This document shows, piece after piece, positions 1 to 61,475 of a stretch of 64,000 nt of DNA (position 1 is the stretch's first letter; the number at the start of each line of letters is the position of its first letter). The translations under genes were made by a program, and so were the position numbers. Below the pieces are notes generated by a model. It worked only from the letters and a program-made list of their open reading frames with translations. It had not been told where the DNA came from and ran no database searches. The DNA is from Podarcis gaigeae (lineage: Eukaryota). The DNA lies in the NCBI GenBank assembly GCA_964106915.2, contig OZ066915.1. One strand, given 5' to 3'.

Positions 1-611
1 CTCTTAAGTCTGTTAAGTTTTCCCCTCTGCAGCTGATACCAGCTTTGGAAGGGGTAGTTTAGGTGAAGGCAGTAGTGTAAAGGCAGAGGGTCAGTGCCCC
101 TCACTGTAGCCCTAAACTAAATGGAAGGGGCCATGCCTGGTTTTGGAGAAATTAAACAGCATCAGGAGCATAGGCTAGTCCTACTGTTAGAAGAGGTGGT
201 CACTTCAGGCATCAAAGGCAAGGGGCAAAGATGGGTGAGGACCTGTTGAAGGGCAGAGCCATGAAACCTGTTCTGCTTTCCTTAAGCTAGCCTGCTTTCC
301 TCAGGTGCAGTGGAGGATGTTCTGCTGCTGACAGCATTGAAGTAAGATTAAGTTTGGTTGGCTTTCGTATCTGAAATGGGAGGGAGGGTGCCATCTTGTC
401 CTTCACCTCTTGGGCTGGTCCTGATCAGGCGATCCAATTACAGAACATCCATACCATGCGCAGTGCTTGACCATTCTGAATTGGTGATGAGAAATTTGCA
501 AATAAAGGTGTATTAATGCCAGCTGAAACTAATGTTAGATGTATAATTTCATGAAAGACAACTGTTGCCTAATTAGATATGGAATTGTTTCCTTTTGCCA
601 TTTTGAATCAG

Positions 612-641
612 ATTTGTGTGCCAAAAAAGAAAAGATACCTA
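612..641 (+). CDS. CACNA1D: CACNA1D candidate cassette microexon 30a (10 aa, ICVPKKKRYL) in the IVS2-S3 loop
   Basis: ttttgccattttgaatcag|ATT...CTA|gtaagt: pyrimidine tract, AG, 30 nt open in phase 0, consensus donor. It lies upstream of exon 31 and resembles the basic 10-aa chicken hair-cell insert as I recall it. Confidence 0.75.
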
Positions 642-2796
642 GTAAGTAGATGTACATTGGGTTTTTGCAGTGATGAAAGCTGTGAGATGTGTGATGCAAG
701 TATACTTGCTGTGACTTGTCCATATATTGCATTCTCCCTTTTCCAGAGTCATCTTTATTTCTTTTACTTAGTGTTATCTATTTATTTTTTTATGTTTGCT
801 TGCTTTGGCTTTGCACATTGCTGGGAACAATATTTGTACACGCTGACAGGAAAGGTTTGCCTTAAGAGATTGATATGTGACATGTTGTTCCAATATTCTG
901 GCAGGTCCCATAGTATCTCCACTGGACTCCTTCCTTCCACGTAGAAAGTCTGCACAAGGCTCTCACACCACGATGATAGGGTCTTCTAATTGCTTCCTGC
1001 TCAGTAACTCATGTTCTGCTTGAGGGGAAGGTTTTCAGCCCATCAGCATTTCTTTAGGGGTGTCTGATTCCTGTCCATGGACATTCTTCAAATACTTGAA
1101 AGTTGTCACATAGGACCCAAACCAATGAGTTCCAAAGCTATGATTCTAATAGAAACATGGCTCACAATGCTTTATATTGCTTGAAATTCTTTTTTATGCT
1201 AATATTCTAAGAACAGAATGTGAAATTACAAAGAAAAATGAAGACTGTATTTCTTAGGCCCTCTCTTCATGGGATAATCATGGGATTATCAGGAAAGAAC
1301 CTGATAATAAAACTCCATACCCTTTAGAGATTTCATTGAACAGATGAGTGTTCAGAAATATCTGGTGGTTTGGAATAACCCAAGTAATAAACTCTGGAAG
1401 TGCTAATTATGCTGGTTTGTTTGTTTTTATTTTCCTTCCCAAATTTGAGATTAAAAGATACACTAGTAGTACAGAGCTGAACTGTTTCAAAGCTGTTTTA
1501 AAAATATTTCTCAATAAGCACACACAAGTAGCTTAAAACGAGCAAGGGGCTTAAATGCTGCCCATTAGCTTTATGTAGTCTGTCTTGCCTTTCACCATTA
1601 TGTCGCAGTGTTTCTGTTCTGAGCACCATCTTTTTCCATTTCAAATTGACTTGGTTCATTTTCAAGCACTTCTTAAGGAATCTTAATCATACAGCTATCA
1701 AAACCGTCTGCATATGAGTGGTGCAATTTTGGGTTGGCTACCCTACTTTATCCCACACATATGTTTCACTGCTACTCTGCTGATCTTTTGATTTTCAGTA
1801 CTATGTTAGCTTTCTCAACTCGTAGAAGCACACATTTACATCTCCTTCTCCCCTGAATCTTCTGAGTGCTGTAATTTTAGCTTTTTCACAGCTCATGCCT
1901 ACAGGGAATTTTTTTTCATAAACAACAGTGGTGATGCATCAGAGTATGGAAGGACATCCTGTACAAGAAACCTGGGGGAGGCAATTTGCAACCAACTGAT
2001 CTTACTGCTGCCCAAGGCTCAGCTTTTCCCCCAAATAGGCATGCTATAGGAATTTGATTTCTGTCATTTCCGGTGCAAACTGACATGATATGCACACTCT
2101 GGGCCTAATGTGTGGATCAAAATCTAATGAGCCCCTGGGATTGTGCACTTATACAAATTTTGTAATCCACTGCTTGGTTCAAAAAATGTACCGTTCCTCC
2201 CCCCCCCCCCCTAAAAAATGTGTATTTTGGCCTAAAATACATTTAGAAGTGTAAATGCATTTAAATATTTCATTTAAAAAATAATCACAGAATAATGCAG
2301 AAGGCAGATGGAATGGATTTATGAATAAGCCCGTGTGAAATTGTCACAGAGTGGGAATAGATTAATCTGCCTATCTCCAGCCCCAGTAGTTTGGGAGAAC
2401 AGAATAGCCACCCTAAGTTGTAGTATAGTTTCCAACCTTTTACCCTTTGGAAAAGGATTGGAAGGTGAACTCCTCTGAGGGCAGGGGTATGGAACTTCTG
2501 GCCTGTGGGCCTAATCAGACCCACCAACAGAATCCAATTTCCACCCTGTCCTGTACAAACCTGTTTACACTGCTCACAGATTCACTGCTCTTCAGATTCC
2601 TGTCAGCATGTGGGGATCAAATCATGTCACATATCAGCCTTTCCTTCAGTAGACAATATTGTTTGGTTTTTCTCATGACACCATGGATTTTTGTTTGAAG
2701 TAATTTCTGTTTATGAAAAAACTAAACAGAAGTATGCAAATATTTTGACATTTCATGTGTAATCACAAACGTTTGCACCCTGCCTGCTCTGTTCAG

Positions 2797-2880
2797 GGCT
2801 ATTTTAGTGATGCCTGGAACTCGTTTGACTCCCTCGTCGTTATTGGCAGCATAGTAGACATCGTTCTCAGTGAAGCCGAT
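2797..2880 (+). CDS. CACNA1D: CACNA1D exon 31 variant 1 (IVS3): [28 protein letters not shown]
   Basis: ttcag|GGC...GAT|gtgagt, 84 nt, phase 0, typical Cav1 IVS3 sequence. Confidence 0.97.
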
Positions 2881-3197: not shown

Positions 3198-3281
3198 CAC
3201 TATTTCACTGATGCATGGAACACTTTTGATGCCTTAATTGTTGTTGGTAGCGTCGTTGATATTGCTATAACAGAAGTTAAT
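3198..3281 (+). CDS. CACNA1D: CACNA1D exon 31 variant 2 (IVS3, mutually exclusive): [28 protein letters not shown]
   Basis: ctaacag|CAC...AAT|gtaagt, 84 nt, paralogous to 2797-2880. Not present in the ORF track. Confidence 0.97.
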
Positions 3282-14283: not shown

Positions 14284-14328
14284 CCAAAGCCAACTGAAAC
14301 TGTCACTGTCACAACTGATGAGTCTGGG
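14284..14328 (+). CDS. CACNA1D: CACNA1D cassette exon 32 (IVS3-S4 linker): PKPTETVTVTTDESG
   Basis: tttttttaaag|CCA...GGG|gtaaga, 45 nt, phase 0, 431 nt upstream of the IVS4 exon. A second in-frame AG ends at 14289. Confidence 0.85.
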
Positions 14329-14759: not shown

Positions 14760-14888
14760 AACAATGAAGAGAGTGCTAGAATCTCCATCACCTTTTTCCG
14801 CCTTTTTCGAGTGATGCGATTGGTAAAGCTCCTCAGCAGGGGTGAAGGGATAAGAACTTTGTTGTGGACATTTATTAAGTCTTTTCAG
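14760..14888 (+). CDS. CACNA1D: CACNA1D exon 33 (IVS4 voltage sensor): [43 protein letters not shown]
   Basis: ttttag|AAC...CAG|gtaagt, 129 nt, R/K at every third residue. Confidence 0.98.
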
Positions 14889-33867: not shown

Positions 33868-34017
33868 NNNNNNNNNNNNNNNNNNNNNNNNNNNNNNNNN
33901 NNNNNNNNNNNNNNNNNNNNNNNNNNNNNNNNNNNNNNNNNNNNNNNNNNNNNNNNNNNNNNNNNNNNNNNNNNNNNNNNNNNNNNNNNNNNNNNNNNNN
34001 NNNNNNNNNNNNNNNNN
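33868..34017. other. Assembly gap (150 N)
   Basis: Run of n. Confidence 1.
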
Positions 34018-37000
34018 CTTAGACAGTCAAATGAAAACTGAAACATCATGGAAATTTGCTAGTTGCAATAGAAGAAGTCTAGACCTCTAAAAAATACTGC
34101 GATTTAGGCCACAACTTTTATACAAAAATTACATTTGTGGCCTGTTAAACCACCAAAAAATGTAACTACTGATCCATATGAAAACAATCTGTTTGATGCT
34201 GTGTGGATGAACCACTATGCTTCTCTGCCACTAAATGAAGTTTCATGTTTCTCCAAAGTACAATTAATACATGGTTTATGGTTGATAATATAAATCAAAT
34301 TACAACTTATCCAAAAACAACTGTGTCATTACATTCTTTCTTGAGAGAACACTACAAAAATAAGGGGCAGTATTCAACTAAATTTTACTCAGAGTAGACC
34401 CATTGAAATGAATGAACATGACTGAATTAGGTCCATTAACGTCACTGGGTCTAAATAAAACATAGTTGAATTTTATTAGATTGATATCTCTCATAAGGCG
34501 ACATCCATACAATCACACCCTACCACAGTATCAATACAAGTCAACAGTAAAACACATACTTTAGAATGCCAACTGGAAGGCCATGTGGAAATAAAGCCCA
34601 AGCATGTTCTTTAAGATTTAACCAATAGTTTTATATCCCTCCTATGAGCAACAGCTCACAGGATAAGGTGGTAAGATAATCTAATTCACCATCTTGCGTT
34701 GGGATCCTCATTCCAGTTCTGTTGCAATGTTTGTATGCTTTATCTAGAACCTAAGGAATAAATAAAGTGAAGGTAAGGTAGCCATGATAAATTTTCTTGG
34801 ACCTGGTTCTTATGCTCACTTAAAACCCTCTTCTCATGGTTATTAATGATGGAGTATTGGTGTTTGTATGTTCCCGTCTCTAGACCACCCTAAGCTACTT
34901 TGGGAGAAAGGATGGGATATAAATACTACTAAATAAATCTAATAATAAATCCCCACTTGTCATTCCTATTCATAAAATGAAAAATGAACTGGGCGTTAGC
35001 GATTATTTCCCATAGTCAAACGTATCACTTTGACCCTTGTTTCACCATTTCCAATCTCAATAAACAGCGGCAAAATCACGTAGTAGTACAGGAGCAGGGC
35101 TGCAGTTAACTATCTGTCAGTAAATGATGGAAACTTAAAACTGATGCTCTGCATTCATAGCAAAATAAGTGTTTAGTGGAGCATGAGTGACTTTAATTAT
35201 TTATGTCTAATACATAGCATAGAGGTTGCCCTTTCATTACATTTCCGCTGGAGAAGATATGTATGGATTATCTATACCTATGTGATTAGTCACGTAATGT
35301 TATATGAAATAGTATCTAATAGAAATGCTTCTTCCTGTATGTAAACTAGAAACACTCACACACAGAGGCGCGCACACACTTTTGTTTAACAAACCTGTGC
35401 TATTTTTGTGAAATGTTTATAACCCTCAATTAGCTGCTGTAATCACGATGGAAATTTAGAAAAGATTATCAATGGCTATCAGATGCAGATGGGGGGTTTG
35501 TACGTCACTCTGCTTCAACTTCATTGGTGTGCCATGTTTATAATGGGCTCACATCAAAGCTCAGCTGAACAGCGCTGGGAATTGACAGTAGATCACAGAG
35601 CCCTTTGTACAGGAAGAGTGAAGGGAACACGGTTTCAAGGGGGCTGAAATAGGATGGGATCTACGAAGATAAATGGTTCTGAGGATTGCAGACTCGACTA
35701 CTATGTTTCTTACATTCACTGCTACAGCGTAGGTGCCCTATAGCTTTTTGGGGGTGGCATGGTTTTTGGATGTTCTGTATGCTTTTCTAATCAAATGAGT
35801 ATTGCATTTTATTTTATTAGGCACTGATTACTTGTAAAGTAAAATTATCAGACTAAGTATGCAGTGAAGTATTTCCTTCACTGTAAATCAATGCAGGTAA
35901 GTGACACCTGAAAGCTAGCAGCAGCCTTCAGAACCATGATAAAATTATTTTAGATTCCATGGTATTTGCAAACCTTTCAACATTTCAGATGACTTGTTTG
36001 GGCTTACAGTTCTTACCTACTTTCTAGGCGGTTTCCAGGGAATATTATAAATAGTCAAGCAGTGCAACATTTGTTTTGCTCAATAGTTATACTAATAGAG
36101 GTATTAAATATTGCTTACATGACCTGTTAATGACTCTGTGGGTTTAATTAATATAATGAAAGAAACTTTTTTTAAAGGCATACTTATATAATAATAGAAC
36201 ATATATAAGTTCAGATATAAAATAAAAATACATAATCTTTTTTATTTTTATTTATAGATTAGAATTTCTTTAGGAATGTGATAAATTTTTATAGAGCATA
36301 GAAGAGGAATTGTATGGGAAAGCACTGCAATTTATGTTTGATTATAAGAGCTTTGTGTGTATGTGCAACAGCTTTTTTTTTTTTTTTTTTTTTTGAAGCA
36401 TATTAAGAAGCATTTCCTTCTTAAATCTAAAATATTACCTCCAAACTGAAGGGAGAGAGAAAGTGTTGATATTTATTAAACCTATCCTAATTCCAAAGCC
36501 AGTACATCTTTTCTCATATTTAGGAGTCGTTATGATTATTGTTTGCATTATATTTTTAAATCCATGTAAAGGTGTTTGTGTGCTTACTTCTTAATGACAA
36601 ATGTGGTAATGTGACCATATTAACTATTGAAGCATTCCTCGATATTTTTTTAAAAACCCAACAGATATGTGCATGTGTGTCCATTTCATTTTTTGCTTTT
36701 TCAAAGGGGAAGTTATTTGTGTTTTCAGATATTAGGTACCATACAGTGTGAGTGTGTTGATTAAGGCCTTCTTGAAAAATTACCTACGCTTTCCCTTCTA
36801 AAGAACAACTGCATTGAATTATATCAACTAGAGGTTTTACTCTTGTGTGTTATGGAACAAACTACTGAAGAAACAGCCCCAATGTGATTAAGTAATTGAG
36901 GCCATTCTGCAATAATTAAGTCCTTGATAGTCAAAGTGCCTCAGTCTAGGATTACTTAGTCCCATCATTTAGGATTTATTGAAGATTTTAAAGTAAATTT

Positions 37001-44093: not shown

Positions 44094-44120
44094 ATCTCGC
44101 TATTATGAAACTTACATTAG
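44094..44120 (+). CDS. CACNA1D: CACNA1D cassette microexon 44 (27 nt): (R)SRYYETYI(R)
   Basis: Long pyrimidine tract, gatag|A TCT CGC TAT TAT GAA ACT TAC ATT AG|gtaagt, symmetric phase 2. Confidence 0.92.
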
Positions 44121-60599: not shown

Positions 60600-60651
60600 C
60601 AGAGTGGCTGGGGAAACCCAGACAGATGGGCGGGGTACAAATAATAAATTA

Positions 60652-60694
<43 letters not shown>
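60600..60694 (+). repeat. LINE/SINE 3' tail fragment ending in an (ATT)n microsatellite
   Basis: cagagtggctggggaaacccagacagatgggcggggtacaaataata followed by (ATT)n at 60652-60694. Confidence 0.65.
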
Positions 60695-60697
<3 letters not shown>

Positions 60698-60715
60698 AGA
60701 TCTGTACACAGCATT

Positions 60716-61475
60716 TGTCAGGGGTTCAGAAGGAGAGACACAGGAGGGGGAGCAAATGGAGAGTGAGGAGGAGGAGTACGAGGGGGGCGCAGGCAGTGAC
60801 AGTGGCCAGAGTTATTCCACAAGCCTCTCTAGCGAATCGGAGGACTCACAGAAGGGAGCGCCGGTGGCCAGAGCAAGGGAGATTCCAAGGGAGAAACCTC
60901 AAGAGGGAGGGGCCAGCGGGGAGTCCCTGAACAGCAGCTGGAGATCAGGGCCAGCGTCTCCACCAGAGCGCAGTGGGGAGGGGGAGTCCCAGGAGTCGGG
61001 ACCAGTGTCCTCACCACCAGAGGGAGGAGAGGAGTCAGGTTTGGCAACACCCACATCAGGAAGCGGGGAAACGGTCAGAAGGAAAGTCACCGGCTGGGCG
61101 CGCGCGCCAAGTTCAAATGTACAGGAGCGCGGCACAGCGGGGAGCCCGGGAAGGGAGCCAGGTCCTAAAGCCCGCCGGAGGGAGGGGCAAGACTCAGGAG
61201 GCTCCGCGTCAGAGGAGTCCAGGAAGGAGGGAACCCCAGAGGGCAGAAGGACCCAACGCAGGGAAGAGCAGCGCAAGAGGTGGAGCCGGGCTAGAATCTT
61301 AAACTGGTGTGGGTGGAGCAGTGAGTCAGAGGGGACTTAGCCGGTCCAGCGTTAAGACGTGGGCCTGCGCGCCCAGAGCTTGGAAATGGAAACTAAACTT
61401 CAATAAAGACTTTTGTATATAATATCCACTGGGCGTTGGTCCTCTGTGAGCTGGGACCTAGCGGCAGTCCTGACA
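60716..61475 (+). mobile_element. Solo LTR (760 bp) of an LTR retroelement
   Basis: TGTCAGG...CCTGACA termini, 5-bp TSD GCATT (60711-60715 / 61476-61480), AATAAA at 61402, CpG-rich. Confidence 0.88.
60756..61340 (+). CDS. LTR-internal ORF, 194 aa, unknown function (acidic, S/G/P-rich, basic C-terminus)
   Basis: Good Kozak context (gcaaATGG), uninterrupted to TAG, AATAAA about 60 nt after the stop. Confidence 0.45.
   Translation: MESEEEEYEGGAGSDSGQSYSTSLSSESEDSQKGAPVARAREIPREKPQEGGASGESLNSSWRSGPASPPERSGEGESQESGPVSSPPEGGEESGLATPTSGSGETVRRKVTGWARAPSSNVQERGTAGSPGREPGPKARRREGQDSGGSASEESRKEGTPEGRRTQRREEQRKRWSRARILNWCGWSSESEGT

Follow-up and report, generated by a model that had tools for sequence, protein, structure and literature searches.

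A 30-nt cassette exon of lizard CACNA1D and its orthology to the IVS2-S3 insert of chicken and skate Cav1.3

A short insert in the IVS2-S3 loop of Cav1.3 has come up in two sensory settings. In 1997, Kollmar and co-workers reportedly described ten additional residues at this site in chicken cochlear hair cells, and the exon is said to have been known since then. Ramakrishnan is said to have found the insert in trout hair cells in 2002, and the brains of chicken and trout are reported to be without it. In 2017, Bellono, Leitch and Julius reportedly described a KKKER motif in IVS2-S3 of skate Cav1.3. Its charges are said to be needed for a low threshold, and the motif is proposed to prime the voltage sensor of domain IV by repulsion. 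The locus described here, within a window of 64,000 nucleotides from the lizard Podarcis gaigeae, raises the questions of whether squamates retain this exon, whether the inserts of hair cells and electroreceptors are one and the same, and what the lizard version would do.

Exon, splice signals and host gene

The window covers the 3' part of a lacertid CACNA1D gene. One C-terminal exon matches Podarcis muralis proteins at 100% identity, and its best matches that bear a name are alpha-1D; tblastn maps the exons onward from IVS3 as far as the stop codon, and the C-terminus encoded by the mapped series is common to alpha-1D proteins. The two IVS3 exons are preceded, 2.2 kb upstream, by a 30-nt stretch that is free of stop codons and encodes ICVPKKKRYL (Table 1). 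The stretch is called exon 30a here; this label and the CACNA1D exon numbers follow common usage or the original prediction.

The original prediction, which had been made from the letters of the window, proposed a 30-nt phase-0 exon with an AG acceptor and a GTAAGT donor upstream of IVS3, and this proposal is borne out. The acceptor has a pyrimidine fraction of 0.72 in positions -22..-5 and an AG-free zone of 34 nt, and the GTAAGT of the donor is the sole copy in positions 1-2796 of the window. Phase 0 is assigned because exon 31a begins on a codon boundary and the Anolis protein reads AFKPK-ICVPKKKRYL-GYF; exon 30 lies upstream, outside the window, and the exon order is taken from that protein. 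The stretch is almost certainly a real exon.

Table 1. Exons and splice signals of CACNA1D in the window
Feature	Position	Strand	Basis or remark
Candidate branch point CTAAT, A at -40	569..573	+	Motif scan; predicted
Polypyrimidine tract of exon 30a acceptor	585..604	+	Window letters
TGC (UGC), candidate SRRM3/4 element	596..598	+	First base at -16 from exon
3' splice site AG of exon 30a	610..611	+	Window letters
Exon 30a, CACNA1D 30-nt phase-0 cassette exon, ICVPKKKRYL, IVS2-S3 loop	612..641	+	Translation, homologues, chance test
5' splice site GTAAGT of exon 30a	642..647	+	Window letters
Exon 31a (IVS3), first of alternative pair	2797..2880	+	Found after the insert in the majority of proteins that have it
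Exon 31b (IVS3), second of alternative pair	3198..3281	+	
Exon 32 (IVS3-S4 cassette), 45 nt	14284..14328	+	
Exon 33 (IVS4 voltage sensor)	14760..14888	+	Putative electrostatic counterpart of the insert
Lizard orthologue of the mouse Srrm4-dependent 27-nt Cacna1d exon	44094-44120		

Elsewhere in the gene, exon 32 (PKPTETVTVTTDESG) is two residues longer than the Anolis, snake, turtle and bird versions, by way of a 6-nt tandem repeat, and has no exact match in the four Podarcis muralis UniRef models examined. The long intron that separates exons 41 and 42 contains an assembly gap of 150 N (about 33870-34020). Downstream of the last CACNA1D exon there is a purine-rich, low-complexity open frame of 230 codons (60648-61337), possibly a repeat element.

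The insert across jawed vertebrates

Scored against six non-squamate inserts, ICVPKKKRYL ranks first of the 73,851 stop-free 10-mers in the six frames of the window (33.3; the runner-up, at 28.7, has no GT donor), and exon 30a ranks first of 282 stop-free AG-30nt-GT cassettes on both strands, the next scoring 15.2. The chicken insert was itself located without the lizard peptide, among the matches to a distant exon, as AFKPK-IFVRKKERWL-GYF. On these rankings, chance can be regarded as ruled out for the match to the known inserts. Four RefSeq isoforms of CACNA1D have the identical peptide at the identical place: two in Anolis carolinensis (XP_062825988.1, XP_062825982.1), one in Crotalus tigris (XP_039216835.1) and one in Pantherophis guttatus (XP_034292970.1).

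The Podarcis muralis models, of which 4/4 examined are without the insert, would fit a chance match or a silent relic that this lizard no longer splices. However, the same models contain no exact match to exon 32 either, and the identity of the peptide across lacertid, iguanian and snake lineages, the two intact splice sites and the first rank among the 10-mers make such a relic very improbable. The exon had been expected to be missed by automated annotation, which is true of these four models but not of the RefSeq models of the three squamates, which include it.

Elsewhere, ten-residue inserts occupy this site in isoforms 5-7 of the chicken UniProt entry and in turtles, tuatara, catfish, a shark, an electric ray and two skates. 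In a tally whose unit is annotated isoforms, not genomes, and in which many of the entries for birds, turtles and tuatara may be projections of the chicken protein, the insert is carried by 8/11 proteins spanning the site in cartilaginous fishes, 6/7 in teleosts, 4/32 in squamates, 1/1 in tuatara, 3/11 in turtles and 18/55 in birds, and by 0/118 in mammals and 0/37 in amphibians. These proteins came from a search centred on the chicken insert and from two cluster look-ups; clades were assigned by printed names, with two unnamed Logan proteins placed among the mammals, and another 41 proteins, mostly alpha-1C-like or unnamed, stand outside the tally. A search of shorter proteins for junction-spanning fragments derived from transcripts gave 7 matches among 59 candidates; the insert is present in one of these, a bird protein, and in no fragment from Logan or from squamates. 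None of the 24 matches in a profile search of 50%-identity representatives contains the 10-aa insert. Eight proteins with odd inserts of 7-13 aa starting with VG, VV or VC were set aside as probable donor read-through in gene models; several of them are named alpha-1C or have other C-termini.

The insert is used alternatively, in that isoforms with and without it exist in the same species; for example, Rhinoraja has isoforms with and without VCVKKKERWL. As a separate observation on Pangasianodon cacna1da, LFVPKKERTL is present in 6/6 isoforms returned by the insert-centred search, which suggests frequent inclusion in this catfish.

The chicken insert, IFVRKKERWL, shares gene, IVS2-S3 site, length, phase and four basic residues with the lizard exon, whereas lizard PKKKR has no counterpart to the acidic residue of chicken RKKER and its net charge is +4 compared with +3. 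The skate insert VCVKKKERWL (Rhinoraja, Amblyraja) has the same site and length and likewise four basic residues, but where the skate has KKKER the lizard has three K plus R without E. Lizards are not known to have ampullary electroreceptors. The squamate peptide is identical to the chicken insert at 6/10 residues, to those of softshell turtle and tuatara at 7/10 and to that of skate at 6/10. V3, K5, K6, R8 and L10 are invariant in 7/7 aligned inserts, whereas at position 7 the six non-squamate inserts all have E and squamates have K. The net charge rises from +1 in Narcine and Heptranchias through +2 in tuatara and catfish and +3 in skates, birds and turtles to +4 in squamates, whose K, K, K and R make theirs the most basic version. 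Positions 1-3 and 10 stay hydrophobic while the charge varies in this way; position 2 is Cys in squamates, tuatara, softshell turtle and elasmobranchs, and Phe in birds, two turtles and catfish.

The sevengill shark Heptranchias and the electric ray Narcine are electroreceptive. Both have VCVEKKERWL (net +1) as against the KKKER of skates, which amounts to a natural charge reversal in a presumed low-threshold motif.

Judged by its letters, the stretch is an intact lizard CACNA1D exon, orthologous to the ten-residue IVS2-S3 insert of chicken and skate Cav1.3, and the hair-cell insert and the electroreceptor KKKER insert of skate are the same exon. Orthology to the chicken insert, resting on 6/10 residues, the shared site and the top rank in the chance test, had been anticipated correctly, as had retention in squamates and a polybasic patch (net +4); the statement that mammals do not normally use the insert agrees with its absence from every mammal protein in the tally. 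The link to the skate KKKER insert, overlooked in the original prediction, is what would supply a mechanism. We regard as established the exon itself with its splice sites and position, an orthology that reaches from elasmobranchs to squamates, and the alternative use of the insert. In the literature searched, which does not include the primary papers, no paper treats this exon in squamates or identifies it with the motif of skate, so the link may already be published.

Splicing control

The predicted TGC near the acceptor is present. The same trinucleotide occurs in 890/3981 16-nt tiles (22%), and it starts within -20..-7 in 2/18 other CACNA1D exons, a set that excluded one IVS3 exon and the 27-nt exon. 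Because TGC is so common, SRRM3/4 control of exon 30a is plausible while gaining little weight from the motif, and we consider the chances that inclusion depends on SRRM3/4 to be evenly balanced. At 30 nt, the exon lies outside the strict microexon definition of 3-27 nt (10.1101/2024.11.29.626094). Since Srrm4 targets of 30-37 nt and above are on record in the ear, this length weakens only the label of microexon.

Among the Table S2 rows listed, the mouse Cacna1d exon given as Srrm4-dependent in the ear is a different one, of 27 nt (PMC3464207). TGC stands at -16 in both the lizard exon 30a and the mouse 27-nt exon, the mouse offset being counted by eye. The lizard orthologue of the 27-nt exon has no TGC within 40 nt upstream, in contrast to the mouse, so its regulation may differ from that in mouse. 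One source states that the exons which Kollmar 1997 and other studies reported in hearing genes have not been recognised as SRRM3/4 targets (PMC7652395). Another argues that high Srrm3/4 alone is insufficient to account for sensory-specific inclusion, and low NOVA/RBFOX/ELAVL is proposed as the second condition (PMC10987577). Zebrafish cacna1da has srrm3-dependent microexons (PMC13281805), but the functional paper cited for them deals with exons 11 and 32, and none of the rows listed from the zebrafish supplement is a cacna1da splicing row.

In the flanks of exon 30a, MSI (TAG), NOVA (YCAY), RBFOX and PTB motifs are without enrichment. TGTG occurs 4 times downstream against a mean of 1.2, with 15/297 tiles as high, a result that is discounted as one of 10 comparisons. 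Separately, the acceptor of exon 31a (2774-2796) has three TGC, at -23, -16 and -12, a stronger UGC signal than that of exon 30a, and these may bear on the choice between 31a and 31b.

Proposed role in sensory cells

We lean towards the reading that hair cells and related sensory cells are where the exon is chiefly included and that its four basic residues lower the activation threshold. By analogy with what is reported of chicken and trout hair cells, a sensory-cell bias of exon use is quite probable; that the insert lowers the activation threshold, as is said of skate, also seems likely, if with somewhat less assurance. Hair cells and similar sensory cells would splice in the exon, perhaps through SRRM3/4 acting at the UGC at -16 together with a second, sensory-cell-specific condition. 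The four basic residues would sit on the cytoplasmic face of voltage sensor IV and repel the S4 gating charges outward, and the channel would then open at small depolarisations, pass a standing Ca2+ current and support tonic release at ribbon synapses.

The literature searched includes no functional test of the squamate version. For skate Cav1.3, two sources give activation at more negative voltage and less inactivation (10.1101/274449; PMC10064067), and a third names KKKER as an electrosensing insertion of four positive residues, although it loosely speaks of a K+ channel (PMC5993716). The charge model has against it that charge is not strictly conserved, given the values in Narcine, Heptranchias, tuatara and catfish. 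The exon might instead be real and sensory-biased yet bind the membrane or a partner through hydrophobic or Cys residues next to the basic cluster, serving contact with anionic lipids, palmitoylation, trafficking or anchoring at the ribbon synapse, and affect gating little. Such a role would suit the hydrophobic positions 1-3 and 10 and the invariant V3, K5, K6, R8 and L10, all kept despite a net charge of +1 to +4, as well as the Cys at position 2 in those lineages that have it. Palmitoylation cannot be general, however, given the Phe that birds, two turtles and catfish have at position 2, and skate work is said to link the KKKER charges to gating; we consider a pure binding role unlikely.

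The tissue in which the exon is used is a further point on which readings differ. Its presence in the RefSeq models of three squamates may indicate use outside the ear, and the squamate exon could be a broader neural or neuroendocrine cassette rather than a hair-cell isoform. The ordinary isoform sets in which those four squamate proteins occur, the full set of Pangasianodon isoforms examined and the pan-neuronal action that UGC-type control would have all point that way. On the other side, the insert is skipped in 28/32 squamate proteins, brain in chicken and trout is reported to be without it, and the chicken protein may have been the template for some of the database entries; a broad neural cassette seems distinctly improbable.

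The preferred reading, of a sensory-cell exon that lowers threshold, does not make the exon indispensable. Cav1.3 of mammalian inner hair cells activates in a negative voltage range (PMC6960213), yet no mammal protein in the tally carries the insert, so the exon is not needed for a low threshold. More speculatively, the hair-cell exon and the electroreceptor KKKER might together be one ancestral jawed-vertebrate, SRRM3/4-gated low-threshold switch of Cav1.3 with its charge retuned by lineage from +1 to +4. With the squamate change from E to K, lizards and snakes would then have the Cav1.3 that activates at the most negative voltages, and might use it outside the ear as well; mammals would have lost the exon and reached a low threshold otherwise. 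We put this forward tentatively.

In itself, the exon is the expected orthologue of a known exon, with a squamate peptide already in RefSeq for three species, and since the exon has reportedly been known since 1997, the surprise is low. What is added is a correction to Podarcis gene models, the identification, by sequence, of the hair-cell and electroreceptor Cav1.3 inserts as one short exon, and the squamate E-to-K change, which completes a natural charge series from +1 to +4. This series offers a ready test of the electrostatic priming model for voltage sensor IV, and of how Ca2+ channel threshold may be set in non-mammalian ears.
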